DNA of 64,000 nt, taken from NCBI RefSeq assembly GCF_018977255.1, contig NW_024704742.1, forward strand, positions 56,236,001-56,300,000, written 5' to 3'. The position numbers and the translations under genes are program-made. The DNA is from Callorhinchus milii (lineage: Eukaryota). The first letter of the stretch is position 1. Every line of letters starts with the position of its first letter. This document shows positions 105 through 64,000 of the stretch, piece by piece. The notes under the pieces are model-generated. The model had not been told where the DNA came from and searched no databases. It saw nothing but the letters and a program-made list of their open reading frames with translations.

Positions 105-343
105 TTGGATGTTTAACATCCACCTGAATAGACAAATGGGACCTAGGTTTAACATCTAATCTGAAGCACGGCACCTTTAGCAATGCAGCACATCCCTAAC
201 ACTGTATTTGAGTATCAACCTGGACTATGTGTGTTCAAAATCCCAACATGGCTCTTAAACCCAGAACTGTTTTTTTGTCAGCTGGGTGTCTAACACATGT
301 GAAAACTCATCACCATGCTTAAGAGTATCAATTGAGCCAGGCA
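105..343 (-). mobile_element. Degraded DeuSINE (SacSINE1-like), interrupted at 270-329
   Basis: Matches the reverse of the Deu-type body (...gttaaacc...caggtggatgttaaa) and the tRNA-like head cctggctcaattg seen at 20691 and 35350-35785. Confidence 0.65.
270..329 (-). mobile_element. 3'-terminal fragment of unclassified ~590-bp retroposon (copy F)
   Basis: T-run followed by gtcagctgggtgtctaacacatgtgaaaactcatcaccatgcttaagagtatc, homologous to 56957, 22755 and 61940-61994. Confidence 0.75.
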
Positions 344-4466: not shown

Positions 4467-4796
4467 AAAAAAAAATAATAATAATAATAATCCTTGCATT
4501 TGATATAGCGCTTTTCACGTCGGGAGGACGTCGCAAAGCGCTTCACAGAACACACTGTAAAGTGAATTGCTGTATATTTGTGGGCGAATGCGGCAACCAA
4601 TTGCGCACAGCGATGTCCCACAAACAGTCGTAGATTGAAAATGACCAATTTATTATTGTTTTTTGTTTTGGAGGGATTATTATTAGGCGTGTGGAGTAAG
4701 GAAACTTGCCCAAGGTTTCGCCCTGACCTGCCTGGAATTGAACTCAGGTCTCTCACTTGCAAAGTGAGTGCTCTAACCACTGAGCTACAGGACTCC
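4467..4796 (-). mobile_element. Young full-length tRNA-derived SINE (short form)
   Basis: Head ggagtcctgtagctcagtggttagagc..gagttcaattcc with A/B boxes, L2-type 3' stem-loop, (ATT)n tail; near-identical to 15764, 40739 and 49730. Confidence 0.95.
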
Positions 4797-4811
4797 AACT
4801 GATAAGAAACC

Positions 4812-6295: not shown

Positions 6296-6900
6296 ATTAC
6301 AAAGCATTACCTAACATATGTTACGCAGTTCACAGCATCATGTAAAATCATGTTCTGCCAGGTGCTGCTTGGGGAAGTGATTAAGGAAGATTAGCCATTC
6401 CTGAGTAATTTAAACTTGCAATCAGTACGGAAGAAACGTTAAATAATGCACCACAAAAGTATTTAAATTACAGATAGATTTGCTGAGTTTAAAATGCCTA
6501 ACTGCTTCCTGAATTATTCTTAATTTCAAGATGAGTTAATTTTATCCGCTTTATATTCTTTTGTGATGTAGGGTAACACCTGCTAAGTCAGTAGGAATTG
6601 AAAGTTTAAAATGATTTGATCATCTCTAAGTAAGTCTCTCATTTGTTATTTTTGACAATAATAGTGCAGAAAAATGACTTCAAAAATAATAATAATTCTT
6701 GTATTTGATATAGTGCCTACCACATTGTTGAGACATCTTAAAGGGCTTCACGGAATATATTGCAAAGTGGATTGTCTGTATTTTGTGGCCAAAATGCAGC
6801 AATCAATTGTACCCAGCAGTAACCCAAAAAAGTTGTGACCAATTTTTTTTTGATATTATTATCCCTGGAAAGCGATCTTCCAATCAACTAACAACTGGGC

Positions 6901-7330
6901 AAAACACAAAATACTGCAGATGCTGGAAATCTGAAAGCAAAAACAGAAGTCGCTGGGAACACTCAGCAGGTCAGGCAGCATCTATGGAAAAAGGAAAGCC
7001 AGTCACCATTTTGGGTCCATCAGCCTTCGTCAGAACTGGGCATGTTGGGAGGGAGAGGCTTTTAAGGGCTAACAGAGAGGGGGGAGGCAGGGCAAGGAAA
7101 ACAAAGGAGAAAATGGGGTAGAGACAGGGGATGAGGTGTTAATGATGCCGAACAAAGGGGGGGATTGAAACAAAGCAGGGGAATAGGGGGGTTAATATTG
7201 CAGAACAAAAGGGGGTGGGGGGGAAAGAACTTGCAACAGAACAGGCAGATCAGGGAGCGAAAAGGTGTGTCTGGGATCAAGATGACGTGGTAATGGTCAC
7301 AGAAGAAGGGGAGGGGGAAGGCGAGCTGTT
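6901..7330 (-). mobile_element. Penelope-like element 3'/pLTR remnant with degenerate hammerhead core
   Basis: aaaatactgcagatgctggaaatctgaa..cactcagcaggtcaggcagcatct; minus strand reads CTGACGA-aggctgatggaccc-AAAA (7033-7009). Confidence 0.8.
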
Positions 7331-9444
7331 ATGGTTTTACCTGTCCTTTACCCCATTTTCTCCTTTTGTCTTCCTTGCCCTGTCTCCCCACACTCTGGAA
7401 AGGAAACTTGCTCAAGATTTTGCCTCACCCAGGAATTGAACCCAGGTCCTCTCCTTTGAGAGGCGAATATTTTTATATTGCAAAAAATATATAACATAGT
7501 TGAATTCACAAAGGTTAAAACATGTGTTAATTTCAAACAGGAGGATAAAATTGTGGCATGTGATGTTTTAATAACTGGTGATAAATTATATCATTAACAG
7601 ATATTGTCAATGAGGCAAGTGGACATCTAGATATGCTCTATTGTGACCTACACTCAATAGTTGTGTCTGACATTGACCCATATGAGACATTGCATTCTTG
7701 CCCTAAGGATCGTGGCACTGGAATGATAAGTAACAGGATACTAGTTTAGCTCAATCAAAAGAGGGGAGTGAAATCACCTTCTTTTATACCACAAGGATAA
7801 TATATATTTAACACAATTCACTGCACTTTACAGTTAATTCTGTGAAGTGCTTTTAGATATTTTGACAACTTGATATGGTGCTGTATCAAATTCAAGGATT
7901 ATTATTAATAAGAAAATACATTATTAGCCCTAATGTTTAAAGATACCAGAAGATGATTTAAACATCAATAATAATAGTTAAATCTTGTAGTTCATACAGT
8001 GGCTATAATCTTAAAGTTTGTCACACAATTTCTGCGAAATGTAGTAACTGTATTTATAATCAAATACTACAATCAATTAGCACATATCAGTTTCCCACAA
8101 ACACTCATCAAGTGACTAATCAATATATCTCTTTTTGAACAGTGCCATGGGATCTTTAACATCCACCTATAAAGCACCCACCTTGGTCGAACATCTCATT
8201 CAAAGCTCGACACCTCTTACAAAACAGCACTGCACTGGAGTGACAGCCTAGACACAATATTTTGTAAATAATACAAGATAAAGATGGTGGTGTACTGTTA
8301 CTTTAACTTGCATAATTTAAATCATTATACAGATCTATCTAGAACATGACTGCAATGCAGAATAATTTGAGAATTCAAAATGAAATTGATGAAAATGCAA
8401 TAAAACTGCAAAGGATTCACATTCCAAATGTGTTGATCAAGTTTTTATTGGCCATTGATAATTTATGACAAGATCCTTAACTCTGCAATCAAATATGATC
8501 TCTGCTCCTGTCATACTAATTTTGTCTCCTTCTCATTCTGTCTTTTAAGAGCGGTCATACCTTTTATACTTCAAACTGTCCACCCTACTGTCTTGGACAA
8601 CTTGAAAGTTAATGGCAGGTTTCATAACTTATTAAAGTACACCTGTACTCTCAGCTTAGCTGCTCCGATTGAGAACTTGACTATTTTATACATCTCTAGT
8701 ACTCTGCTCTTGTGCACTTTTGTGATTTATTTGTCACTCCCTTGTTCACTGATAAACCCTTTGACAGGATCTGGAAACGTGCAACTAAATCAAGTTATGC
8801 CTTTGTAGTTTTCTACAAAAATGATGTTCATAGCTATTCAGTTTATTTTCAAATTGTTCTTTCTTGCCATGGTTGACGGTTTATTCTTTGAGTTTAATCA
8901 TCTCAAGGATTCTTGAGGATTCTTCAGAGCTCTGCATCTCCTTCTTTGATCCGATTCCACATCAATGACCATTCTTCCAGTTCTACCCATATCTTCCAAC
9001 AATGATCTGACATTATATTCAGTAACTTTCTACAGAACACATGTATTTAATGTTCACAACCTTCATTGCTCCTTGTCATCCATCAAAATATGATTGTAGC
9101 TCCCGCTGACTTGCTGCAAAATTTCCTGAAATAGCTTTTTACTTAACCTGTACATAGGCTTGAGTTCCTTTCTCATCCTTATTCTGCTCTCCTGCAGGGG
9201 TCTATTATAAAGCAACAGAGACAGCATAGCTTTGTGACACAGCATTTGCTGACATCTATATACCATCTATTTTTCCAGCAATATAGTTCTCTAGTTCCTC
9301 CAAAATTCCCTTTCTCCAATATTTCTGCTGTTCTAACTTAACATCACCTTGACAACTTCTCAATTGCTCACTAAATTACACTTATACTTTATTAGCACAT
9401 TTATACTTTGTTGTACTTCATTACTACTTAATTCCCATTGCATG

Positions 9445-9779
9445 CTTGGCTCACAAGCGAGAGGACCTGGGTTCGATTCCAGCAGGGTGAAACATTAGTC
9501 AAGTTTCCTTACTTCATGGGCCTCTGTTTACCTAACAGTAAGTAGGAATCTGGTTGTTAATCGATTAGCGGATTGCTTTCCGGTGATAATAATCCCTGCT
9601 CCCCAAAAAATTGATTATTAAATCCTTGACTGTTTGTGGGACATTGCTGTGTGCAATTGGCTACTACATTTTACCCACAACATATACAGTCAATCCAATT
9701 TACAATATATTCTGTGAAGCAGATTGAGACATCTCAACAATGCTTTATCAAATGCAAGGATTATTTTTATTATTATTAC
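9445..9779 (+). mobile_element. Older long-form tRNA/CORE-like SINE
   Basis: Partial tRNA head, retains gcctctgtttacctaacagtaagtagg segment, shared 3' module and (ATT)n. Confidence 0.85.
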
Positions 9780-10665
9780 AACAACATCAAGAACAATTTG
9801 CATTTATATAAAGCCTTTCATGCGGGCTAGCGTCCAGGACCACTTGACAGTGGTGGAGTCTAATGTCGAACCAGGGGAGGTGACAGTAAGCATGATCAAA
9901 AAGGAAGATATTTGGGTGGGATTTGAAAATGGGGAGAGAGCAGGCAAGGCGGAGGAATTGTGGGAGACAGTTCAAGAGTTTTGGGGTTTAGTGACATGTC
10001 CATCGATGTTGGAGCGGAGGTGACGGGGGATGAAGAGGAGGCTGGAGCCAAGCAGTGGCAGCAGGTGGGGGAGTGGAGGGTAAGCTGATCGGATAGGTAG
10101 GGAGGTCGAGTGCATGAAGGGATTTGAGAATAATGAGAGGGTCTTAAAATCGATTCATTAGGCAGTTGGGAGCTAGTGGATCCTGGCAAAGACTGGTGTG
10201 ATGGGGTACGGAGTTTTGTTTGGATGAGTATGCATGAAGTGGAGTTTTGGATTAATTGAATAAATTATTACGTGGAGCTGGAGAGACCAGCGAGGAGGGC
10301 ATTGGAATAGTCCTGCCGGGAAGTGCTGAAGGTGTGGACGAGGGTTTCAGGCTGCATTGGTTGTGAGGTATGGACAGAGGTGAGCAATGTAACGGATGTG
10401 GAAAAAAGTGTTCCTGGCCAGGAAACGTATGTGGGGTATCGAATCTGATGTCTAAATTGCGCACAGGTTTGGTGAGTCTGAGGGAGAGCCCAGGGAGGTT
10501 GAGAAGTTCAGACCTACAGGACAGAAGATGTTGATTAGGGCCAAAGAGTATGGCTTTTCTGTCTTGCTCACTTTCAGCTGCAGGAAATTTATGCTCATCC
10601 AGACTTTGATGTTCGTCAAACAAGCTGACAGGACATCAGCGAAATGGGAGTCACAGCTGGTGGAG
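9780..10665 (-). mobile_element. Degraded L2 3' portion
   Basis: LSACLTNIKVWMSINFLQL..KTE, LTKPVRNLDIRFD; CAA-type tail. Confidence 0.85.
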
Positions 10666-11884
10666 GAGACTCCTCCATTCAGAAGGTCCAAAATGCACTG
10701 AAACTCTGGAACTCTCTCCCTCAATCCCTCAGCCTTGCCCCCTCCCTCAGCCTCCTCACTTTCAAATCCCGCCTAAAGACCTTCCTTACATCTTTTTCAT
10801 TCAGAAAAAATACTCTATCTAACTCCATCTAAATGTGCTGAGTTCTTGCAATGCTGGAACAACCAATACCTTCACAAACTATATTATTAGCGCTTGTTAC
10901 TTAAACCAATTGTTCTAAAAAATATATTATATGTAACTGTTTGAATTTTCATAAGCAGTACCAAAGGTGAAGTTCTCATGATTGAAAATACTTGAAATGA
11001 AATCTATGGATTATACCTGACTGTTTTACACTAAAAGAAAGAACTAAAAATGATCAATAAAAGATATAGACATGATATAACAAAATAACTTTTTTTTCTT
11101 AATTTCTGTCAGAATAATTCATTTCAGATGCTCTATATCACAACTTTGGTTTGATCATGATACAGAATTGTGTCATTTTAAAACAACACCTAAATGTTAC
11201 ACTTTTTGTAAAATATATCATTGGTTAAAAGAGAGAGAATTTGACAAAATAAGGTACAATTTTAATGTTCAATTATTAACAGCAACATAAATTCATACCT
11301 TTACAGTGAATCCAATACTGAAAGATTCAGAAGTGACAACTATTAAATCATTGGACATTGTACTCTTAAGGATAATAATAATATTTGTTGAGTTGATATA
11401 GTCTCTTATCAAAGGTTATCGAAATGCTGCACAGGATTTAATGGTGATGTTTATTTATTGTGTGTTCATAGGTGAACAGAACAGTCAATTTGTACATCAC
11501 AAAGTCCCACAAACAGACACAAAGTGAATGATCAATTTTATTTGGAGGAAATATTGGAGAATTGCAATGTAATAGTTGGTAGCTCTCCTGACAATAGTTA
11601 TTTTCTGGTCTGGATTTGCTGAAGAGCAAGTAAATGCTCTCTCTTCTCAGACCCAGAATCTTTTTTTACCCACTTGAGATCGAAGAATCCCCAAAGCCCA
11701 AGAGAGAGTGATAATTTGAACCTTAATATCGTTAATTATTGACTATGATTCATTGCTGTTTAGCAGAGCTCTACACAAGGGTTAAAGTGTGCATGCTCCA
11801 CTGCCCATTAACACTGGTCAGGACAATACTATGCTGAAATGGCAGCATAACAGGATAAGATTAGCCAGTTCTGTAACATTACTA

Positions 11885-12120
11885 ATTTAACGTCCCGTCT
11901 GCTTGTTCAGTTGGATGTTAAAGATCCCGCGGTACTATTCGAAAAGAGAAGGCAGTTTCTTCCAGTGTCTATGGCTGTTCGTGGGACATTGCTATGCACA
12001 CCTGGCTGCTGCATTTTGCCCACAAAATAGTCAATCCCCTTTACAGTATATCCTGTGAAACCTTTGAGATCAATTAAATGATAAGGTGCTATGTCAAATG
12101 GAAGGATTATTATTATTATT
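11885..12120 (+). mobile_element. DeuSINE 3' part
   Basis: gtctgcttgttcagttggatgttaaagatccc.. joined to the shared 3' module and (ATT)n. Confidence 0.7.
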
Positions 12121-15763: not shown

Positions 15764-16081
15764 GGAGTCCTGTAGCTCAGTGGTTAGAGCACTCGCTTTG
15801 CAAGTGAGAGACCTGAGTTCAATTCCAGGCAGGGCGAAACCTTGGGCAAGTTTCCTTACCGCACACGCCTAATAATAATCCCTCCAAAACCAAAAACAAT
15901 TAATAAATTGGTCATTTTCAATCTACGACTGTTTGTGGGACATTGCTGTGCGCAATTGGCTGCCGCGTTCGCCCACAAATATACAGTCAATTCACTTTAC
16001 AGTGTGTTCTGTGAAGTGCTTTGGGACATCCTCCCGACGTGAAAAGCGCTATATCAAATGCAAGGATTATTATTATTATTA
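15764..16081 (+). mobile_element. Young full-length tRNA-derived SINE (short form)
   Basis: Same head, body and (ATT)n tail as 4467-4796. Confidence 0.95.
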
Positions 16082-16433
16082 TATATAAAGAATTTCTATG
16101 TTCCTATATATAAAAAATAAAGATAAGAAAGGATACCATAAAAAACAACAAGATTACATTTGTATAGTGTCTTTCATGTTGAGAAGACGTCCCAAGGTGC
16201 TGGACAGTGTACAACATTTCAGACCCGAGCTGGGATCAGGGAGGGAGAAGGGAAAGGAGGGTGGCCGATGGCATATGCTTCAATCAAAAGAACAATAGAA
16301 TAAAGTATGAAATCAGAGATAAAGACAGCATAAGCTAACCACTAACCAGTAAAAAACAACAACTTGCAAGTATATAGTACAGTGTCATGCATATGGAATA
16401 ACATCTTGGGGCACTTATGAGCTCATATATGAG

Positions 16434-22233: not shown

Positions 22234-22744
22234 TTAGGTATTTTACTGGTTTTGCTAACACACCTAGTAACTACATATCTTAATGAGAAACGTAAAATGG
22301 GTAATATATATCAGATCGTATGATGATTTCCCAATTTGTTGGAACAGGTCAAGCCCACTTTCAGATGAATATCAATATTATTCCATTGTGCCAATCTCCT
22401 TCACAATCATACCTTGTGCTAATGTAAATTTTTCATGTATATAATGAAATTTAAAATACCGCAAGTTTGACCAAACTTTATCTTGTATAATCTGATTAAA
22501 ATCAAAACGGTATCTTAAATTATATAGCATAAACCAGTACTGATCCATTTGTAATTTGATTACATTTATCAATGGAACTATATATAACGTTACAAAGAAA
22601 CCTCATCCTTTATCACCCCATCCCCCCTTTCAACCTGTTCTCTGATGGTATTCCTGTTTCCAGGGCAGTCTGGAATATTATAAGAAAGAACTTGGATTTC
22701 CAAATATATAAAATATTTTAAAAAGTGCTTCAGTCATTATTGTC

Positions 22745-23587
22745 TTTTTTATTATCAGCTGGGTGGCTGCCACATGCGGAAACCCAACGATAACAACAAA
22801 TTACATTTATATAGTGCCTTTCACATTGGAAGGATGTCTCTGGACAGTTAAGCACCCGAGCTGGGAAGAGGCACTAATGTGGTCAATAATGCAGAGGTGT
22901 AGGAAGACAGGACAGGTCATGGCACGGATATAGTGTTTAAAGGATACTTGAGGGCTGAACAGGATACCAAGGTTCTGTACTGGCTCTGTGAGGTGGAGAG
23001 TGCGTCTGTTAATAATGATACTAGCAGTGAAACCCATCATCATGCTTGAGCATCCAACCCCCAAACTGAGAGTTCTATGCATCACACCTATACGTGGAAA
23101 TTCCAGAAATATTTGTTAAAATGGAATGCGCAATCTCTCTCCGGAGGGAGCTGCTTTCCTAATTCTGGAAAATATTAGGCACAGATAGGTAAGAGCCAGG
23201 GCTTGGGGGCCTGAGAGTGTGCGCCTGGGTACTGCTGGAGTCTAACCAGCTAAAACTGCACAGCTTTCTGTTGAAAGCACTGTCTGGAAAACGTTTTCTC
23301 TGCTTGTCCAGCTAGGACCACCATACCCCTAGAGCTTTGGTTTATAGGGTTAATGAGAGCTGATTGGGAAGAGTGACTAATCTGCCTTTCCAAGTCCAGC
23401 CAATGAACCGGTCGGGCTGTGCTATCATCAGCAGTGCCCTGGAATATACCATGAACCTGCCTGTCTCAAAAACTGGACTTGCAAGACCGCCACTGGGGGT
23501 TGGCTCAATTTTGATATTCCATTGCGAATCATGTTACTGTGGAACTAGTTCAGCTACGAGGAGATCCCCCGCCAAGGAGGATAATCA
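22745..23587 (-). mobile_element. Apparently full-length copy B of unclassified ~590-bp retroposon, interrupted by L2
   Basis: Collinear with 61402-61994 along its whole length; A-rich tail on the minus strand. Confidence 0.8.
22787..23028 (-). mobile_element. Internally deleted L2 fragment with 8-bp TSD
   Basis: LHLTEPVQNLGILF plus L2 tail; gaaaccca at 22779-22786 and 23029-23036. Confidence 0.85.
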
Positions 23588-23969
23588 ACATGTCAAAACA
23601 ACAACCCTTGGCCTAGAAACAAGAATGCTTTTCTTCATCCTCTTCCATAAACATTGAAGCAAAATACTTAAGTATCTGACAATTTCTTATTCTCTCCTGC
23701 ATTTGATCTATTTTTGGCCCAAGTACTTTCTTGACTTTCCTTCGCTTCTGAAATACATACAAAAACCTGTGCTGTTATTCTCTATGTTGTTTTTATATTA
23801 TTTTATCTTAATCTTCTTATTCCTTTTTTCACCTCTTGTCGTTGTATTTTACCTAATTTCCTCTGTATTACTTATCATGACTTTACGACATATAGCTTTT
23901 TAGTGTCAGTTTCAAGCTGGCACTTGAATCAACCTCCTTACTGCTAGTTGAAATGTTTTTAGTCCGTAA

Positions 23970-25206: not shown

Positions 25207-25750
25207 CCTTGACATTGTTTTTCTCCCTCTGTTCATCTATTCATTCAGATTGCAACATAATTATACAAAAACAACAATTTTGATTTATACAGTGTCTTTG
25301 CATGAGGATGGCTCAAAGCATTTCACTCAGTGAAATGTCTTTTACCTGCCCCCAGTGATTGGTTTGCCTTTCCAAGTCCCGCCTGGGTGTCGGAAGTGGG
25401 ATAGAGGGAGCTGTGGGTGGGGGTGGTGGTCGGGGAAGGGTGTGAAGGTGATGGAAAGTCAATCGAAAAGATAGGTCTTAAAGTAAATTTTCAAGGTGAG
25501 GAGGGAGGGGGGATGGTAGAGAGTCTCTGAGATGGAGTTCCAAATTCCAGAGAGCAGGGGCAAAATTCCTGAAAGTTCACCAGTTGCTAGGATCAATTAA
25601 ACAAGGTACATGAAGTAGGTGAACATGCTGAAATGAGTACAGCATTTATTCCTCTTACAATGCAATGATTCAGTCAGTAAATCTTAATCTCTTCCATGAC
25701 TCTTCCAACGGAAAGATTAAAAATCTTTCTTTCAATTCTTTAAAGATTCA

Positions 25751-25962
25751 CAAAACACAAAATACAACAGATGTTGGAAATCTGAAACAAAAACAGAGAG
25801 AGCTGGGAAAACTCAGCAAGTCAGGCAGCATCTGTGGAGAAAGGAAAATGAGTCAACGTTTCGGGTTCTGACGAAGGTTGTGGACCCGAAACGCGGACTC
25901 ACTTTCTTTTCTCCATAGATGCTGCCTGACTTGCTGAGTGTTCTCAGCTCTCTCTGTTTTTG
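25751..25962 (+). mobile_element. Palindromic Penelope-like mini-insertion with hammerhead core and 14-bp TSD
   Basis: ~80-bp inverted arms at 25787-25866 and 25884-25963; CTGACGA 25868-25874 ... GAAA 25888-25891; TSD tctttaaagattca at 25737-25750 and 25963-25976. Confidence 0.88.
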
Positions 25963-26419
25963 TCTTTAAAGATTCAGGTTGTCTTAAATTCTCTTCCGAG
26001 ATTTACTCCTAATTACTTTACTTCTAATCCTTTGTCATCTCTTGCCACTATTGCCATCACTGTCTCCTTTGATCTCCTCCATTGGTAAGTTGTCTCAAAA
26101 ACATATTTGTCTTTTTCCTGGAGGACATTTATTTCTCCCGTAACAACTCTATGATTTCTCTTTGAAGTCTGTGAGTACCCAGTACTTGATTTGACACTTT
26201 TTTACCAGGGAACATCAAAAATAAAGATTGAAAGTTGAAATTAAAAGCTGGAAAATAGTCTACGGCCTGGAGTAAAGGTCTTTGTGATCTTTACTAATTA
26301 AAGAAACATGAAGGAGATATAGAATATGAAAAGCCTGTTAAATTAAATAATTCTCCAGCAATCGGGGGAGATTATTTAATCGCAAAGCTTATCTTTAAGA
26401 CCAAGTTTAAGGACTGTCC

Positions 26420-40386: not shown

Positions 40387-40738
40387 ACTTTAGTGCAATG
40401 CTGCAGATGGACCTTTGGTTCTTCTAAAACTTGGTAGCCATAGAATCATATATTTTTAATCAGCAAAGATTATTGGCCAGGACAACAGAAGAAACTCCCT
40501 TCTTTTTTGACATATTTAATGTTCCTCAGCACTGCACTGAAGCATCAGCTTCAAATGCTCAATGTAGAACTTAAAACCACAATCTTCAGAGGCCAGTTTG
40601 CTACCAACTGAGCCAGGTTGACATCCACAATAATACATACAAGGTAGCACATTTAGATTTGTTGCACATATTGCAGTTTATAGAAAAACTCAGGAAGGTA
40701 CCATTTTATGATGCATAAATCATATTAAAGTCTTCAAT

Positions 40739-41052
40739 ATAATAATAATAATCCTTGCATTTGATATAGCGCTTTTCACGTCGGGAGGACGTCCCAAAGC
40801 ACTTCACAAATATACTGTAAAGTGAATTGACTGTATATTTGTGGGCGAACGCAGTAGCCAATTGCGCACAGCAATGTCCCACAAACAGTCGTAAATTGAA
40901 AATGACCAATTTATTATTGTTTTTGGTTTTGGAGGGATTATTATTAGGCGTATGGAGTAAGGAAACTTGCCCAAGGTTTCGCCCTGCCTGGAATTGAACT
41001 CAGGTCTCTCGCTTACAAAGCGAGTGCTCTAACCACTGAGCTACAGGACTCC
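40739..41052 (-). mobile_element. Young full-length tRNA SINE (short form)
   Basis: Near-identical to the 15764 and 49730 copies. Confidence 0.95.
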
Positions 41053-41830
41053 ACAATGTTTTTTTCAAGAAAAAGAGGCACTGGATTTAGTAAAGGTTTT
41101 CAACAATGACTTGATTCAAGATGAAGAAAACCAATGGCGAGATACAAAAGCACAATGCTGGTGGGGAGTATTTGTTGGTTGTTGATAAAGGTATACCTAC
41201 TTAGATGGCAAGCATGTACTAATCTCTATTTGACAGTAATTTCACTGTCCTTAGATGTATTTGCTTACTATGGGGAATTCGCAGAGAACAAATGTCGTGC
41301 AGTGACACAATTTGTTAGCATTATATCGTCAAATGCTTTTTTGTGAAAAACTGCATATTTAGAGTTACCAATTTATATCTGCAAAATAACCTACCGTAAA
41401 TGTCACACATATTGCTAAGCAAACTTTCTGGGCTTTTCACAAGTGCAATGCTGCGTCTTTAAAAATATATTCAGCACAAAACATTTATGAAAGATGGAAT
41501 GGAATTTCTATAGTTGTTTGCTTTTTAAGAGCCAAATGGAAGTTCAGTGCTCAAAAATCATTTTCATTAACTAAAAATCCTGCCATTCAAATATAAACAA
41601 TTTGGGTGAGAAAGCACAGAGTGATCAAACTGAGAACAGACTGAATGAGGCAAAGGAATGCATTGCTTGTCAGCATAATAGTTGGAAGAGTAATCACTGA
41701 TACATAGATCAGCTGGTGTTCATTTAATTAATATTTTTAAGAAATCACACAAAATAATCTTGTAATTGGTTATGACTTGATGGTTATTACACATATAACA
41801 ACTCAAATGCTTATTAATACTCACAGTTAG

Positions 41831-42200
41831 TTTTTTTGATCAACTTGGTGTCTGAAAGAGAAAGAGAAATGCGGACAGAGATGACCATGCTTTAGAGTAC
41901 TGAAATCAGTCTAAGAGTTCCACATGTATATGCCACCTACACACAGAAATTTCCCAGTCTAAAATGGAATGCGCACTCTCTTCCACAGGGATATACCCTA
42001 CTTACCTAATTCTGGAGAGTATTAGCACAGGCTAGACTGACAAATGCCAAGGCTTGGGATCCCAGAGTGTGCGGTGGGGTACTGTTGGAGTCTAACCAGC
42101 TAAAGTCAAATAGCTTGCCATTGAAAGCACTGTCTGGTAAACGTTCTCACTGTTTGTCCAGCAAGGGCTACCCTACCCATCTGAGGTTTGAGTTTCTATG
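41831..42200 (-). mobile_element. 5'-truncated copy C of unclassified retroposon
   Basis: aaaatggaatgcgca..cctaattctgga..ggagtctaaccagctaaa..ttgaaagcactgtctgg matches 23119-23310; T-run at 41831. Confidence 0.8.
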
Positions 42201-42557
42201 ATGTTTTAAAATATGCCATGAAATAGATTAATTACTGAACAGCTCGAAGTGGACGTGTCCAATGAAGGACTGACAACTAGGAGCCATAGGCATCAACGTT
42301 CAATTGGAATATTGTTCATCAACTAGAGAAACATTTTTTAGTCTTGCACGGCAAAGCCCCAGCCAGATCTGCACTCAAGAGTGTTTGAAGGATGTTTGAC
42401 TGGTTTCAGCACTGTTGAGCTGCTTGAAGAAGGACAGCTGGACTCATATCAACAGGTTGATAACAGCAGCGCTCTGACAGCTTCCGTACCACAGTAGCTC
42501 AATGTGAAGCTAGTTGAAGGGAAAGTACCCAGCAATTCATTGCTTAATTCATTTAGG

Positions 42558-45580: not shown

Positions 45581-45807
45581 AAGGAGATGCACTTTATAAT
45601 GTGTGATGCTGTTTACTGGTACGAGGTATGATTTACACTGCCGGTTTCCTGATGAGCATTCTTCAATCACATTGGGATTTTTTTTTAGATTCTCTCAGTA
45701 TACATACCTCTGGCCCTAAACAGATTGGGGCTATTAGGAGTTGTTTAGGTTATTACTGATGCAAATCTCATACTTTTTNCTCCAAATCACTTTGAAGTTA
45801 TATCATC

Positions 45808-49564: not shown

Positions 49565-49729
49565 GTGAGCTGTAACATCATGTTCAAATCAGTAAACAAA
49601 TTTGTAGGGGGCTTATATTAGCAGTGGCCCATTGCTACAGGCTGAGTATTGTAGTCAGTCTCACATTAGCACTGAAGACAAATGGAGCACCTTTCGTCTT
49701 TCCCACAAACCATTTAATAACTACCCATT

Positions 49730-50052
49730 GGAGTCTTGTAGCTCAGTGGTTAGAGCACTCGCTTTGCAAGTGAGAGACCTGAGTTCAATTCCAGGCAGAG
49801 GGCGAAACCTTGGGCAAGTTTCCTTACTCCACACAAAGCCTAATAATAATCCCTCCAAAACCAAAAACAATAATAAATTGGTCATTTTCAATCTACGACT
49901 GTTTGTGGGACATTGCTGTGCGCAATTGGCTGCCGCGTTCGCCCACAGATATACAGTCAATTCACTTTACAGTGTGTTCTGCGAAGCGCTTTGGGACGTC
50001 CTCCCGACGTGAAAAGCGCTATATCAAATGCAAGGATTATTATTATTATTAT
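49730..50052 (+). mobile_element. Young full-length tRNA SINE (short form)
   Basis: Intact head, stem-loop at 49985-50020, (ATT)n. Confidence 0.95.
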
Positions 50053-52015: not shown

Positions 52016-52132
52016 CTAATCACAAGTCCAATCTGGCAATATTGAGTGACAAAGTTGAGGAATCTGACTTAATTCAGTCAGATTCCTATTCTGGTGAGTT
52101 TAATTGTTGTTATTCAGGCATTAAAGCAATCC

Positions 52133-52262
52133 AAAAGCAAATACTATTTATAGTTGGGAACACTCAGCAGATCAAGCAGCATCTATGGAGAAAGGTGACC
52201 TGCTGAGTGTTCCCAGCAATCTCTGTTTTTGTCTCGGATCTCCAGCATCTGCAGTATTTTGG
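52133..52262. mobile_element. Collapsed inverted Penelope-like remnant
   Basis: tgggaacactcagcag...ctgctgagtgttccca inverted arms, ccagcatctgcagtatttt end. Confidence 0.75.
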
Positions 52263-53209
52263 AGTTTACTATTTATAGTTTGTAGAGGCAAAGTATCTCA
52301 AGCATCCAACAAGTGTATTGGCAGAATTACTTTGTCATTTATGAAGAAAACTATCTGGAATCTACAGATCCCAATGGAGAAAATACCATTGTCATTTTGG
52401 ATAAAAGGGAAACTAAAAAAGTTGACAATGTCCAGCAGCACATCAGTATGTCACTATCATGGTAAAGTAACTGCACTGAAATAGCCCATAAAAGCAAGTC
52501 ACCACAATCATAATAATAATAAATAAAAAATATTCTTGCATCTGGTATGGCATCTTTCATGTTGGGAGGATGTCTCAAAGTCTTCATAGGCTTTATTGTG
52601 AAGTGATTATATTTGTAGGCGAATGAGGCAGCCCAATGGAGTACAGCAGTATTTTGCATTATTGTAATATATTGATGTACAATATTCCTGTAAAGTTCAG
52701 GTGGACATTAAAGATCGCATAGCACTAATCCAAAAGAGAAAGAAGTTTCTCCCAGTGTCCTGACCAACAATTCTCCAGATAAAATTGATGTTTGTGGGAT
52801 ACCGCCATCTGCAAATTGGCTGCAGCATCTGCCTACAAATACTCAATCCCTTACAATGAATCCTGTGAAGTACTTCAAGACATTCTCCTGACACAAAAGA
52901 CATATATCAAATGTAACTCTTGTAGCAGGTACTAGAACCTCAGGAGAGGAAGGCTTGAGGGTCAGAGGCTGTGTCTTCCTAAGGAAGTGATCACATTCCC
53001 CATATTCTCCTCTGGCTGGAGCCGTGGGCTGGCAAAGAGATGGTCATTGACCCAAAGCTGGAGGGGCCTGAGGGCTCGGGCAGCTGGTCCGATGTTTGTT
53101 AATGTTTAGGGCAGGAGGGGATTGTGCGAGGGGGATTATTGTTATGCTTGGATTAATGTGATTGTTGGAGAAATTGCCTGTATTTCATCATTATCTTCCC
53201 TTCACTTAC

Positions 53210-55882: not shown

Positions 55883-56949
55883 CTCGGCACTGACTGAATT
55901 GAATTGCTTTCCCTTTACTTTCACGCAATCTGGGAACTGACGTGAAATTTGAATTAAATCACACACTGAATATGCAAAGCGATTACTTTTGAGTGTTCTT
56001 TTGTGAAAACACAGTGTTAGAAATAGTATGTCACAAATTAAACTCCAGGATCAAATGGCAGGTTATCAGTGATGTTTACAAAACAATGAAGATCGCATTC
56101 CACATCAGCTGCCCATGGGCTGGGAACTCAAACCCTTTCAATTGCTTTCAGATACTGTGCCAAATTCTGCATTTTCATGAGCAGCACAGTAATGTGTTGG
56201 CTGAACATAAAAGCAAAAGGTCCTCACAGATGCAGCTTCTTATTTTTGGATTCCTGGTGTATGTTTACGTGCTGGAAAAGCAGAGAAAGGATGCCACATC
56301 ATTACTTTAATTCACAGTGGTGCAGTCAATTAGATACAGTCCACTTCAATTAGATATAATAGGTCAAGTTCTGTTTATAGTGTTACTGCTTTGCATAAAA
56401 GCCTTTTTGAATTGGGGTGATAAAAAGATAATAACAATGCTTGCATGTCAAAGCATTCACAAGATTTACTGTAAAGTGTAGTGACTACGTGATTTGTGAG
56501 TGAATGTAGCAGTCAATTTCCATACATGAATGTCTCACAAACAGCTGTGAAATGAATGATCAATTTTATCTGGGTGATTGTTGCCCGGGACATCGGGTGA
56601 GATTTTCTTCTATATTTGCCATATTTGACAATTGCACATATTCACAGGTCATCAGTCAATGAAGATGTCTCTGAAAAAACACTGTTGTCGGTGATGAGAT
56701 GTAAACATAGTAAAAGTCATGGCTGCTAAAGAAAATAATAAAATACACACGTACAAATCTATTCTTTGAAAGTTTCAAACTGTAACAATCCTGAGGAAGA
56801 AAAGGAAAACCAGCTCTAAATCTACCAGTGCTCAGAATGCCTGAGGATAGTTAATGACTGGAAAGGTGCCAGGAAGGATGGGTGAGGCCAGAGCACAACT
56901 CATTTAAAATAAGCATTTTGATGTGATGATTGGTAAAAAGATGGAAGGT

Positions 56950-57196
56950 TATTTTGGTCAGCTGGGTATCTGACACATGCGGAAGACCATCACCATGCTT
57001 AAGAATGTCATACATCTCACTGACACATGGAAATTCCAGAAATAAATTGTTGGAATGGAATATGCACTCTCTCCCTGGAGGGATGCATCCTGTTTACCTA
57101 ATTCCGGAAAGTATTTGTCACAGGTTGGCAAGAGCCATGGCTTGGGGACCCCAGAGTATGCGCTGCAGTACTCTTGGAGTCCAAACAGCACTGTCA
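56950..57196 (-). mobile_element. 5'-truncated copy D of unclassified retroposon
   Basis: ggtcagctgggtatctgacacatgcggaagaccatcaccatgcttaaga..ggaaattccagaaata..ggcttggggaccccagagt. Confidence 0.8.
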
Positions 57197-58297
57197 TTTC
57201 TCAAACTGAAAGCTTTTCACAAGAAGACATTTTTATGTTAATCAGAATTTTTTCAAACTATTATAAATGTAAACAATCTGTCCTCTCATATTCACAATTT
57301 AAAGTTAATTTGCTTAATGCTATAATTTGTGTTACCTTCTTAGGACTTTATAACATTTATAAATTTCAATAAATGTTGGCCAAGTGAGATGTAATAGCAA
57401 AGCTCAGGCCATTCGGTGGCATGCACAGGCAATAATTCTATGTTATGCCTGGACTAAACTAAGAATTAATAATGAGAAAAAAACTGTGGATAATAATTCC
57501 TCCCCAAAAAAAATAATAATAGTAAATTAGTCACTTAATCCACGACTGTTTGTGGGACACTGCTGTGTGCAATTGGCTGCCGCATTTCGCCCACAAAATA
57601 TACAGTCAATTCACTTTACAGTATATTCTGTGAAGCAGTTAGGAATGTCTCGAAGATGTGATAAGGTGCTATATCAAACACAAGGATTATTATTATTTTT
57701 ATTGACCCTGTTCCAACAGTCTATTAGATCTTGGCAGATGTTGGCTTCCAACTGATCCAGGTGTTAGACAAGTGTTAGCCAGGTAACACTCTCACCTGAA
57801 TCACAAGGCTTGGTGGGTTGAAACCCCACATCAGGACTTTGAATTCACATAGTCAAGGCTGACAGCTATGCTGGTGGTGTGTCTTACTGTTGGAGGTGCT
57901 TTCTTTTGGATGAGATGTTAAACCGAGATTTCTAGTGACTATTCAGGTGAATCTTAATTCTTTTTGGGTCATTTTCCAGCTCAGACATTGTACCAAAGTT
58001 GGTGGGTGGTGGAGTCGAGATAGGGTGGGGACTTAGACCCACAGACAGACGACTGCAATTGTTTTTCGCAATACGATAATGATACTAATGACAATTATCA
58101 CAATCGTTAATTATCGCAGGTCCCACCACACTTTACAACCAGCTATTTTATATGATGTTCATGATTTCTTGGAAGTCGAAGGTCCACTTAATCCTAAAAT
58201 TAAGAAACTATTGAGGTTGACAAACACTTTATGGATCTGATCACATTGTCAATTATTGGTTTTAAGTTGTCACAAGATATTTATATGCCAGACTTCC

Positions 58298-58655
58298 ATT
58301 TTTATTTGGGCAGCCAGGAATGTGACAATTGCGAAAAACCATCACCATGGTTAAGAGTATCCAAACCTAACTGAGAGTTCCATGCATACCACCTACACAT
58401 GGCAATCCCTATGTTTTGAGATGGAATATTCCCTCTCTCCCTCTCTTGAAGAATGTAACCTGCTCACCAAATTCAGAATTCAGTACAGGCTGTTAAGAAT
58501 CAAGGCCTAGGGACACCAAAGTTTATGTTAGGGTATTGCTGAAGTTTAACCAGCTAAAACTGCATAGCTTGCCATTAACTACATAGTTGTCCAGCACGGT
58601 TTTGTGCTGCGTGTCCAGCACTGACCACCTTACTTATCCATTAGGGCTTTAGCTG
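58298..58655 (-). mobile_element. 5'-truncated copy E of unclassified retroposon
   Basis: aaccatcaccatggttaagagtatcc..actgagagttccatgcat..taaccagctaaaactgca.agctt. Confidence 0.75.
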
Positions 58656-60658
58656 TAAGTTTAGTCTGAGGGACATCATCCAATTAAAGCTGATCCTAAA
58701 CTGACCCCAAATGAAATACATCCAGTACAATTTACATTTGGAATTATTTAATACTTTTCACTGAAGACTACTCAAATAGCTTGACTTAGCTGGAAAGGCA
58801 CTCAAACTAGAAGTTGGAGCCAAAGTGTGGAGAAAAAAGAATCTTTCTGGAGACACAAAATAACTACTGTAGAAACAGGATCAGTTTCAACAATCTGATT
58901 AAAACTGCTCAGATCAAGTTACCCAATATTTGCTTCATTGGGGAGAAGATGGGGTTTGACAAAATGTTACACAACAGTATTTTTTGCATTATTATTATTA
59001 TTTTTATTGATAATCTCCTGTTTTACTGTTAATATTAATTCAGTAAAATCTGTGCTTAGATCTTTGTCTCAGAAAAGAGCCTTGACAAAAATGCTTTACC
59101 TATGGGTCTTTCCCCATCGCATTTCTACATTGTGCGTTGGTCATCAGGTTAGGATGTTCATGAGTCTCACTGGAAGAGTGAGAATTTTCAGGCTGACTCG
59201 TTAAATATATAAATACAAATAACTCCCCCTTGGCCCAGGGGTGCTGAATCCAATTTATTTTCAACTAAAATAGCTATCTCAGCAATTCTAAATTTCACAT
59301 AGAGTAAATCTAGATCCAGATGGAAAGTCTCCCAAATACTATGCAGCAGAACCCTCACTTTGTAACACAGAACAATCAAATCTAAGACCATCTAAAGTCG
59401 AGTGTCATTAGGCCTATGCTGCATAGATTAACAGAGTGCTAGAGAACTGCTCTGAACTCTAAAAGACGATGGTGCTGTGAATCTGGAGCGTTTGTTGCAA
59501 TGCTCTTAGCGAGTCTCTTTCACTGTCATGCGAAGAAGAAAAATCTATCTTCATTTGCACATGTTAAAACCTGTTTTGAGGCTTATAATTGAGGGCCATA
59601 AAATAGTTGTTTAGTTCTGCTGCAGACTGAGCAAACTCAAGGATTCACCTTCAAAGTTGGTATCTTGAAATTCTCATCACTTTATGTTCAGAGAAAGAAA
59701 GAAGGAAAGAAATGTGTAAAATGCTTAAAGGAAGTATATTGAAACTCACTTAAAAGGATTGTGAGTTCTAAAACCTTTAGGGAAAAGTGCTGAAAGTCAC
59801 CTTCTGTAGTATAATTGTGTGCATCATTGCCTATCTAAGTTATATGATCTTGTATGAATTGGCTGAAAAATAGCTACATTAATACTTATTTTACTGAACA
59901 ATATGCTGTTCCATCCGATAAGTGAGTACAGCACCTGAAGTGCTACATCTAAATCTGTTTTGTTACAATGATCCAGTTAACGCTAATAAGTCCTTTACAC
60001 ATTAACAATTTACATGTATTTAGTGATTCACACAGCTGATTGGGGGCCTGAGTTAGGAGGTGGGAAACTGAGAGTGGCGGAAAGATAGATCTTAAAATGG
60101 GTTTTGAAGGCAGGAGGGAGGGGAAATGTCAGAGGGACTCTGGGATAGAGTTCCAGAGAGTGGAAGCAGAATGGTTCAAATCTCACCTAACAATGGTGGG
60201 GAGAATCAGGTGATGGACATGCAGCAGGCTGGTGCAGCAGTATATTCAGTACTTGAGTTGAGAAGACCCCGGCAGAAGCTAAGCAGGAGAGCCTTGGTCT
60301 TGTTGACCTTCAACTGAAGAAAATTAGAGCTCTGAAAGGTGCTCAGTCAGAACAATATTGGACCGGGAATCAAGGGTACAAGCGGCAGAGTGATAGAGTT
60401 GAGTGTCAAACCAGCTTACAAGCCTGCGGAACTCTGCATGTGATTCTGCAGCGGCAAGAATGGAAAAAATTAATAAAATACAAAGAAAAAGGTTTTGAGT
60501 TCACCTTAGAAACATCAATAACTATCCTTCAGATATTATTTCAGCTGAGAGCTTTGAGTGCCCAAGTCAAGTCTCTTTAAATCTACATAGCTGGATTTAC
60601 ATTTTTTTCATAGATGATCTAAATATCCAATTCATTTTCTTCCCATTTAGGAAGTGAC

Positions 60659-61022: not shown

Positions 61023-61401
61023 AATATTCACCTTAAAAGAGACTGAGTAAAGTACTTGCACATCAGGTAACAGAAAGGCTGTTTGCTGGCCTGGAGAATG
61101 AGCCATATGCACACCTGGAGCACAGACACGTATAGCAATCTATATTGTATATTGGTGCTCATCCTTAACTGTCCAGCACCTTGGGATGTCCTCCTGATGT
61201 GAAAGGCACTATGCAAATGTAATTTGTTGTTGTTGTAAGGGATGAGAATGTCTGTAAATTGTACCAATTGTAAAACTGAGTGGAGAAACCGTTTTCTTAA
61301 TATTAATAATGCAGCACAGTGTTTCTGTCTCTTCAGCATTGCACTGAACAACTGAATTGACAGGAGTGGAATCTTTGGTGATGTAGTAATTAACCAACTA
61401 A

Positions 61402-62005
61402 TGACTATGCCTCGTGGTGGAGAGGTAAGCAGGGTCTCCTCGGAGCTGGCTCCAAGATCTGACATGCTCGGCAATAGAATGTCAGAAATGAATCAAACAT
61501 ATGTGGCGGTCTCGGTAGTGATTCCTGAGTCAAGCGGGTCCACAGTATTCCACAGGACAGCTGATGACAGACCAGTCTGCCTGGCTCATCAATATGGCTT
61601 AGAGGGGAACACTGAGGGCAGGGATTTTTCCCATTCAACTCCTGTTAACTCTACAAACTAAAACCCTAAAGGGAAGGGTGGTCTCAGTTGGACAAGCAGC
61701 AAGATGCTTGCAAGACCATACTATCAGTGGTAAGCTATGATGGTATTGGCTAGTTAGATTCCAGCAGTATCCTAAAGCACATTCTGGGTGCCCCAAGCCT
61801 TTGCACCTGCCAATCTGTGCTTAATGATCTCTGGAATTAGATAAGCAGGATATAGCCACTCTGGTGAGAGTATGCATTCCATTCCAAACGCAGGAAATAC
61901 CATGTATAGGTGGGATGCATGTAATTGTCATGCTGGTTTTGATATTCATAAGCATGGTGATGGGTTTCTGCATGTGTCAGACATCCAGCTGACCAAAAAC
62001 AAAAT
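61402..62005 (+). mobile_element. Apparently full-length copy A of unclassified ~590-bp retroposon
   Basis: Collinear with copy B; 3' hairpin GTCAG-ACATCCAG-CTGAC at 61976-61993, then aaaaacaaaa. Confidence 0.8.
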
Positions 62006-64000
62006 AAGCACATGTTGGAAACTTTCACCCCTTTGTCCCTTTTGTTAGAATTGGTCATTCACTTCATGACTGGTCGGGGGGTTTTGCTACATCAAATGAT
62101 AGGGGTATTATTATTTTATTGTCCTTACCTTTGTCCTACATTTCCATTTGTAAGGTCCTCCAACTGATTTATTGATGCTGGAATAAGCTAATGAAAAATA
62201 TATCACTTCACTTTTGGCAAATTGTGAATAGTAGGAGTACATTCTGCCAGGGATTTATCCTAATTTATGGGTGAGTGAGTGATCCAACCATTTGCTGAAG
62301 TTTGGATGGAAGTTTGGTGAGGACATAATCTGAATCAAAGGTAGGTAAGATCACTTCACAATACTGTTTGAATTCACACAGTGGAATAGTCATTTGAGAG
62401 ATAAGGTTTACAGAGGGTATATCGTTCCCATGGGACACTATTCCACAAAGAGTTAGAGATTGAAGAGGAAAAATTGATTCAAGTGATTCTGCTTTCACTA
62501 TGCTGGGAGGCCTGTTCCAAAAGTCATAGCTCTAAATGTAAAACAGTTCATCTGCAAGTCAGATGTAGCTTTCTGTTTCCTTAGCTTATATTCATGTCGT
62601 ATAGGTCTCCGTGCATAGTTTAAGACAGAAAATCTATCCTCTACTCTGCTGATGACCTTTGAGATTTAAAACTTTTGCATCATATTCCCCTTAGGTTACA
62701 TATTTAAATAATATGCATTGGTCCTGATATCTATTCTTACTATTTCTAAGATGAATCATTCAAAGTACATTCATTTTTCTGCTCCCTTAGGTGAAATTGT
62801 TTCTGTAATATTGCATTATGTCTGTTCCTGTTTCTTATGTTCACCAAAAGGGTCTCGGGAGAATGTTACCTTGTTTTTGTCCAACTTATCTAACGTAAGT
62901 AACCAGCTATGTGTTCAGAAAACTGGCCACTGTGATATGATTAACTCATCTTTGGTTTCTATAGTAATCTTTCTGAGCATTATGTTATGTGATGGCAAAG
63001 AGGCAAAAATAGGCAACGGAGTTTCAAACCTAAAAAAAGGCCCTGCTTCTGACATCAGATTTATGCGATCAGAAATCAACACACTACGATTTGTTCTCAT
63101 GTAATCCGGAGGTGACAGCAGGGTAACTATTTTGTTCTCCCAGTGATTTCACATACCTATAAATGCAACAGTTCGTGATCACGTTTTTGTTCCACATGCC
63201 AGAATGTCCTGGGGATGTAGCTAGCCTCATCTGATCTTCTCTCTCTATTCACCAAGAATGTCAGAGACTTAAACCTGCCACCATTCATTGTTTTCATCCA
63301 ACAATGGAACACATGTAAATGACAAATATGCTTGCACGGAGAATCAAACAGGAAATGTACCTACTGCATAATCGACACACAGTCTCTGAAATGATTCAGA
63401 ATGCTTTATTTAAGAAGCTCCCTTTCATCTGCTCAGAGACTGTGTCAACAAAGGGCACTATTTTGTGCTGGCTTGCTCATTTCCTGCTTTGGTGTGTGTG
63501 GAACCAGTTTATTCTGCAGCACAAGATAACAAGCTTAGTTCAAGTGAAGAAAACCCTTCACCTGATGTAGCATTTGTGCAACGCAATATGAAAGTGTTCT
63601 GTGAAATCTTTTGATTGTTCACATGGGAAATAAAATTCAGTAGAGGGTCACTTGTGGTTCTTCATGTGTATGTGTTGTCTTCTGAAATCATTACTGAGGA
63701 TAGTTTTATTTTTCATCCTCTGAGAAGGCCACAATATATTCTATCATAGCTTCCACTAGGCTGGGGGAAGGGACATCCCCACTATCTACTGCTCCCTGCC
63801 ACTTGCTGTAAAGACCGATCACCTTGACCAGCCACTGGTGACTGGATACCACTTGCTTCTGCTTGTCTACCAATGTTGAGCTGCTTGATGCAGTACTTGA
63901 TGGCACAAGGCTGCTAAAGCTATTCCACACCAACAAGCCTTCTGAATGCTGTCCGGAATGCAGGGTCGGCAAAGATAAAGTGGCGCCCTGAGGGAAAGCT

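Follow-up and report, generated by a model that had tools for sequence, protein, structure and literature searches.

Six copies (A to F) of one repeat family lie in the 64-kb stretch of Callorhinchus milii DNA analysed here (the window). Copy A (61402..62007, plus strand) is the longest uninterrupted copy and comprises about 593 nt followed by an A-rich tail (61995..62007, plus strand). When contigs were aligned to this locus, their depth rose in the bin 61386-61419, their loose ends clustered at 61997-62003 and the loose ends behind 61983-61999 were A-rich in all four contig runs. The other copies are on the minus strand. Copy B consists of a 5′ part (23029..23587), whose alignment to A reaches the first base of A, and a 3′ part with the hairpin and A-rich tail (22744..22786), the two being separated by an L2 fragment with an L2-type tail (22787..23028, minus strand). 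This fragment, a later insertion, was recognised from its junctions and the match of its tail; its likeness to ORF2 was judged by eye. Copies C (41829..42202) and E (58297..58668, earlier bounded at 58298-58655) are 5′-truncated at about model positions 260 and 249, respectively, and C carries a 4-nt insertion variant that is present also in loose-end consensuses. Copy D (56948..57243) is likewise 5′-truncated and has a 24-nt internal deletion, and copy F (267..331) is a 60-nt 3′ stub inside the head of a DeuSINE (SacSINE1-like).

The first-pass annotation had proposed six homologous copies, and all six were recovered both by blastn and by a profile search. With copy A as the query against the window, blastn recovered copies B to F, including the 3′ piece of B that stands apart. 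A profile constructed only from A and the 5′ part of B, which is independent of copies C, D, E and F, returned C (E 1.6e-59), E (E 9e-50), D (E 9.4e-49), F (E 2.3e-9) and the 3′ piece of B (E 4.5e-4); across the whole 64 kb, nothing beyond the six copies scored below E 2.8. Pairwise identity among the copies is 64-83%, and identity to the local consensus, which includes each copy, is 80-91%. The six homologous copies are genuine and all are dead. Among their earlier bounds, that of D is corrected: this copy reaches about 57243 and not 57196. The proposal that the short copies are truncated at different 5′ points holds in that all four lack the 5′ side, but the starts of C and E are only about 10-15 nt apart, a proximity that is not significant (P 0.25-0.45 for some pair lying within 15 nt).

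The window also contains a young tRNA-Ala-like SINE, DeuSINEs, and L2 and CR1 remnants. A short repeat family is found at 6869-7047, 25721-25974 and 52128-52261 (partly palindromic at 52129-52239), which we take to resemble the Penelope-like stubs of cartilaginous fish. A long imperfect inverted repeat (52536-52916) has 60% identity over about 390 nt and probably represents a pair of tails, of SINE or L2 origin, in facing orientation. Four young SINEs with tRNA heads (4468-4797, 15764-16095, 40725-41054 and 49728-50052) are 93-95% identical and fit CmiSINE; a tRNA is called in all four by Rfam and in three by ARAGORN. The elephant shark set CmiSINE, SacSINE1-CM and L2-2_CM, as given in the available part of PMC5499810, fits the tRNA-Ala-like SINE, DeuSINEs and L2 remnants of the window. 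The assembly has a single N, at window position 45779.

Termini and folding of the element

All copies share one end column. The terminal hairpin, with a 5-bp stem and an 8-nt loop (61976..61993 in A, plus strand), is a probable recognition site of the reverse transcriptase (RT). Five 3′ ends were aligned, C being omitted for its microsatellite insertion (an expanded TTTC/TCTC tract at 41850-41870, minus strand, just before the terminal hairpin), and 22 of their 25 stem cells are paired. None of the five stem pairs shows covariation or a compensatory change in these five 3′ ends; the covariation check suggested by the first-pass annotation is uninformative here, since neutrally decaying dead copies are not expected to show any. 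The variants CCCAG and CCTGG suggest that the ancestral loop was probably the CpG-containing ACACCCGG. In the 12 nt past the end, five of the six copies have at least 8 A, compared with 1.9% of window 12-mers, and D has 6. The common 3′ end with a stem-loop and then an A-rich run, as originally described, is thereby confirmed. It is also distinct from the L2 and CR1 tails of the window, as had been claimed: in comparisons of the family tail with the window L2/SINE and CR1 tails, 11 of 12 were at chance and one was at 1/200.

The signals AATAAA and ATTAAA are absent from the five copies checked. An AATAAA-type signal before the poly(A) is typical of L1/Tx1 ends, though not strictly defining. 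Patterns of the family tail had 0 matches in viral contigs, and nine matches in metagenome contigs were rejected as chance, being without A tails and having a best E of 0.002 despite selection by the pattern. A convincing target-site duplication was found at none of the six copies, which are 10-20% decayed; the best candidate matches at 8 of 10 nt around copy A.

At the other end, contig depth upstream of 61386 is at the single-copy level. The 5′ flank of A is therefore single-copy, and the start of A near 61402 is genuine. The two longest copies had been said to begin alike, and B does align to the first base of A, with unrelated 150-nt flanks (268 of 500 shuffles); a precision of a few nucleotides holds for A only, and B might extend by as much as about 45 nt more. 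If truncation is random and exponential, a coincidence of the two longest among six copies has a P of about 0.01 within 5 nt and 0.06-0.11 within 45 nt, and all six are shorter than 640 nt with P 0.14-0.30 (means of 500 and 376 nt). Short of proof, the A/B coincidence hints moderately at a natural end or a stop hotspot. None of the six local copies continues into an RT/endonuclease ORF, and Pfam gave no TE domain in 15 frames upstream of five copies (B, C, D, E and F). Loose ends before 61933-61949 continue as family sequence and not as another upstream class, and among the 24 of 1820 loose-end rows examined, no second upstream class was present at the tail junction. Upstream of B, at 23630-23800 (minus strand), lies what by eye is a decayed CR1-like ORF2 linker (YFASMFMEED-type words), for which there was no Pfam match and nothing alike elsewhere in the window.

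Folded singly, the copies do no better than shuffled sequence (z -0.64 and +0.30, and -1.4 to +0.5 in the comparison with the consensus described next). For folding, a consensus was built from the six copies and 36 genome-wide majority letters, of which only 25 equal the commonest letter among the other local copies; it has 115 tied columns and was folded with four tie-breaks each and 20-40 shuffles. The last 350 nt of this consensus gave z -2.4 to -3.6 in the sense orientation vs -0.2 to -1.2 in antisense. A long internal hairpin (61526..61588, plus strand), with arms at 61526-61538 and 61576-61588, has 13 bp in the inferred consensus; the majority letters at 61530 and 61533 both restore Watson-Crick pairs in it, and the consensus segment with this hairpin gave z -1.7 to -5.6. 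The first 120 nt of the consensus, where many of the 115 tied columns lie, fold poorly (z +0.4 to +2.3), so there is no support for a 5′ ribozyme. These folds suggest that the master RNA was probably structured and putatively functional.

Abundance and relative age

Contigs from C. milii and two relatives (organisms A, B and C) were aligned at 80% likeness to 61250-62250. This gave 9,643 contig pieces in organism A, 5,321 in organism B and 3,618 in organism C, numbers that include a smaller second repeat at about 62040-62133. A run only guessed to be of RNA origin gave 2,328 pieces, which carry no information on transcription. Over copy A, contig depth, which is not a copy number, is highest in the final 70 nt in every run and falls off beyond about 62000; past the hairpin, the loose ends start A-rich and become heterogeneous. 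The second repeat (62040-62133, plus strand) is just 3′ of copy A, and its depth is about 2,000 in organism A but 9,000-12,000 in both organism B and organism C. With a (TAT)n-like run at its end, it may be an L2-type tail variant that has decayed.

The density of the family in the window is 94 copies per Mb (95% interval 34-204), which corresponds to roughly 30,000-180,000 copies per 0.9 Gb if the window is typical. The same alternative letter was dominant in all three organisms in most of 40 of 142 difference rows, and this sharing indicates one family common to the three. A loose-end variant that equals the insertion of copy C hints at subfamilies.

Nesting at two copies gives the relative age of the family. 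In the DeuSINE head that hosts copy F, the insertion separates the A-box part from the B-box part and about 25 nt are missing; the L2 piece of 242 nt that splits copy B is flanked by an exact 8-bp duplication (23036-23029 and 22786-22779). The family was therefore mobile later than some DeuSINE copies but earlier than some L2 copies. The junctions and the duplication agree with the nesting order given in the first-pass annotation. In addition, a junction between the tail and the second repeat (61973 to 62049), with the same 31 intervening letters, was found in one contig each of organisms B and C. These contigs may represent the orthologous locus, dating copy A before the species split.

Identity of the retroposon

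The family is an old, abundant, non-LTR retroposon family of the type mobilised by target-primed reverse transcription (TPRT), resident in the holocephalan genome and common to three related species. The fixed 3′ end, A tail and 5′ truncation bear out the proposed mobilisation by TPRT. Its non-coding character is likewise upheld, in a sequence compatible with Pol II transcription: six frames of copy A gave no Pfam match and no TE domain, and the lone long frame, 101 codons over the 5′ part of A, was rejected as a candidate, having matched by chance two long unrelated repetitive proteins among 1.84 billion. The earlier interpretation thus stands for TPRT, the lack of coding capacity, the nesting and the failure of the collections searched to yield a named match; its choice between a SINE and retrocopies of an unknown ncRNA finds no support.

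The reading that we favour, with moderate confidence, is that the copies are the structured 3′ UTR of an old LINE outside CR1 and L2, 5′-truncated, with a presumptive RT ORF attached upstream in the parent. The features observed are the family itself, its common 3′ end, A tail, 5′ truncation and sense-strand folding, and the absence of a Pol III promoter. Counted for a 3′ UTR are the loss of the 5′ side in all four short copies, the depth peak in the last 70 nt and the unremarkable finding that all copies are shorter than 640 nt; counted against it are the lack of any copy extending into an RT/EN ORF, the common start of A and B and the missing AATAAA/ATTAAA. The first-pass annotation had set a LINE 3′ UTR against its SINE/ncRNA proposal, and this identity is now the most likely one, with no RT ORF seen on the six local copies. 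The parent would be an old autonomous LINE, L1/Tx1-like or of another APE clade, with a 3′ untranslated region of roughly 600 nt. The ORF2 protein of this LINE would bind its own Pol II transcript close to the terminal hairpin and poly(A), genomic DNA would be nicked by the endonuclease, and reverse transcription would start in the A tail. Reverse transcription would usually halt in the folded UTR, which would explain why most copies lack an ORF. Three parts of this scheme are our inference: that an ORF2 was attached, that the hairpin had this role and that reverse transcription stalled at structure.

A possible, though clearly less probable, alternative is that a LINE gave rise to an ORF-less, non-autonomous derivative whose own 5′ end lies near 61402. 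This element would be either UTR-only or bipartite (a 5′ UTR and a 3′ tail left by an internal deletion) and would owe its transcription to Pol II and its mobilisation to the parent LINE, acting in trans via the terminal hairpin. That A and B start at the same base between unrelated upstream flanks argues for it, as does the flank of B, which by eye turns CR1-like within about 45 nt. According to the available part of PMC5786205, bipartite elements occur in RTE, Ingi, Vingi and R2, four clades in all. The last ~35 nt of the family are loosely like a BovB/RTE tail, with several short words in the same order (about 23 of 34 positions by eye, from the part of the PMC5786205 supplement available). 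The RTE tails in that part of the supplement end in microsatellites, however, and not in poly(A); the RTE/Vingi 5′ UTR segments examined there show no likeness by eye, and the word matches to it are only short and RTE-tail-like or chance. Rfam gave nothing near significance at the 5′ end of the element, ribozyme families included, and the absence of a second upstream class among the loose-end rows examined also counts against a derivative. We regard as doubtful, slightly more so than a derivative in general, the fuller claim of a ~600-nt holocephalan retroposon with a true 5′ end and consecutive hairpins, without a small-RNA head or Pol III promoter, depending on a non-L2/CR1 LINE and present in tens of thousands of copies; this claim includes that such a head-less SINE equivalent lies outside the four clades known for derivatives, or is new within them.

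Improbable by comparison is that a poly(A)-recognising LINE moved either a true SINE headed by a small RNA or, as mass retrocopies, a structured ncRNA that is itself unknown. The discrete-looking 5′ end in A and B, the lack of an ORF, the folded RNA and the A tail are compatible with it, and SINE heads with external promoters, snRNA or snoRNA heads, exist according to the available part of PMC7245038. The 5′ truncation is compatible with a SINE as well: the young tRNA SINE in the window is often truncated too, so truncation was dropped as an argument against. The A-box-like site noted earlier in copy A, with its weak B-box, did not survive scrutiny. The A/B box pair of A was equalled by 246 of 300 shuffles and that of B, which gave no support, by 73 of 300, whereas three SINE heads of the window, used as positive controls, were equalled by 0, 1 and 5 of 300. 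Runs of T4-T5 occur inside four of the five longer copies, and about 600 nt is long for a SINE. Neither ARAGORN nor Rfam found a tRNA on the element. Rfam scans of copies A, B, C and D/E were at chance level (best E 0.34 over five scans, far below the gathering score), with no match to 5S, 7SL, snRNA, 7SK, RNase P/MRP or telomerase RNA; at gathering level only tRNA was called in the window, on another SINE. The search for an ncRNA identity thus yielded no family, leaving the SINE and ncRNA-retrocopy identities unsupported. Likenesses to twister, hammerhead, HDV, U3, telomerase RNA and 28S rRNA were rejected as partial words with no Rfam match. By eye, the UCON3_CM body segment in the available part of the PMC7245038 supplement was not matched.

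Very improbable, and already largely refuted, is an origin as a DNA transposon, a solo LTR or a terminal repeat of DIRS/Ngaro or Penelope-like type. In its favour, the long copies begin with TG, the consensus ends in CA before the A run, convincing target-site duplications are lacking at the six copies and a CTGATGA word is conserved mid-element. Against it, all truncations are 5′, the end is followed by an A run across the genome, no poly(A) signal is present and the termini show complementarity of 9/30 and 6/30, so that terminal inverted repeats are absent. By eye, the CTGATGA word is unaccompanied by the rest of a hammerhead, and it has no Rfam match. The first-pass annotation had named inverted-repeat or LTR termini as evidence against retroposition; neither terminal inverted repeats nor LTR-type termini free of an A tail are present.

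Relation to known elements and significance

By the tests run, the family is outside the tRNA, 5S and 7SL SINEs and the Rfam families, and it works like a stringent LINE 3′ end. With the poly(A)-tailed, stringent LINE 3′ UTRs described in the available part of PMC3747384 (L1/Tx1 group, R1-type SART1 and the plant L1 3′ stem-loop), it shares a terminal stem-loop followed by poly(A), dispersed 5′-truncated copies and the lack of an internal Pol III promoter. Unlike them, it shows no ORF2 on the six copies and no AATAAA, and it is set beside them by features and not by sequence. The bipartite non-autonomous LINEs (RTE-N, Bov-A and WALLSI3, with Vingi, Ingi and R2 derivatives), as far as covered by the available part of PMC5786205, are similarly ORF-less, a few hundred nucleotides long and without a small-RNA head, and resemble the family in a possible discrete 5′ end and the loose BovB-tail likeness of its last 35 nt; the family differs in having no recognisable RTE or Vingi 5′ UTR segment and in ending in an A tail, not a microsatellite.

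Closer in host are CmiSINE (SINE2-1_CM) and SacSINE1-CM with L2-2_CM (PMC5499810, available part), which are alike in the kind of host genome, in TPRT and in an overlapping age, the last because one copy lies in a DeuSINE-like head and one was hit by an L2. The family, however, has no tRNA head and no A/B boxes, and its tail is unrelated to the L2 tail. Zenon (CR1 group; elasmobranchs, coelacanth and hagfish) is similar as a poly(A)-ended LINE of cartilaginous fish, but in the available part of PMC13343379 it is reported among chondrichthyans only from elasmobranchs, and its 400-nt 5′ end is unlike the family by eye. MER131, an unclassified SINE-like ancient repeat of human (PMC5753468, available part), was compared by description only; it owes its SINE classification to the poly(A) tail alone, which is the same level of evidence.

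The family is not described in the available parts of the literature located, including PMC7245038, PMC5753468, PMC4350176, PMC1845163, PMC3747384, PMC9004415, PMC5381603, PMC13343379 and PMC12952989, and the PMC3964593 supplement gave no word matches. For elephant shark and silver chimaera, repeat libraries have been built de novo (PMC4350176 and PMC12952989, available parts), and it is unlikely that so abundant a family was missed by them, at least as an unknown; Repbase, Dfam or supplements may already hold it.

If the copies were a non-autonomous derivative, the family would add an ORF-less element of high copy number that lacks a Pol III head, and it would bear on how non-autonomous LINE derivatives are transcribed. 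If, as we favour, they are the 3′ UTR of a LINE, they would represent a third old, A-tailed LINE lineage, with very many copies, in chimaera genomes that have been called L2/CR1/SINE dominated. The value of this 3′ UTR reading would lie mainly in annotation, and the long folded 3′ UTR would be a candidate cis-acting element for RT recognition. Shared insertions of the family might then be usable as markers across holocephalan families.
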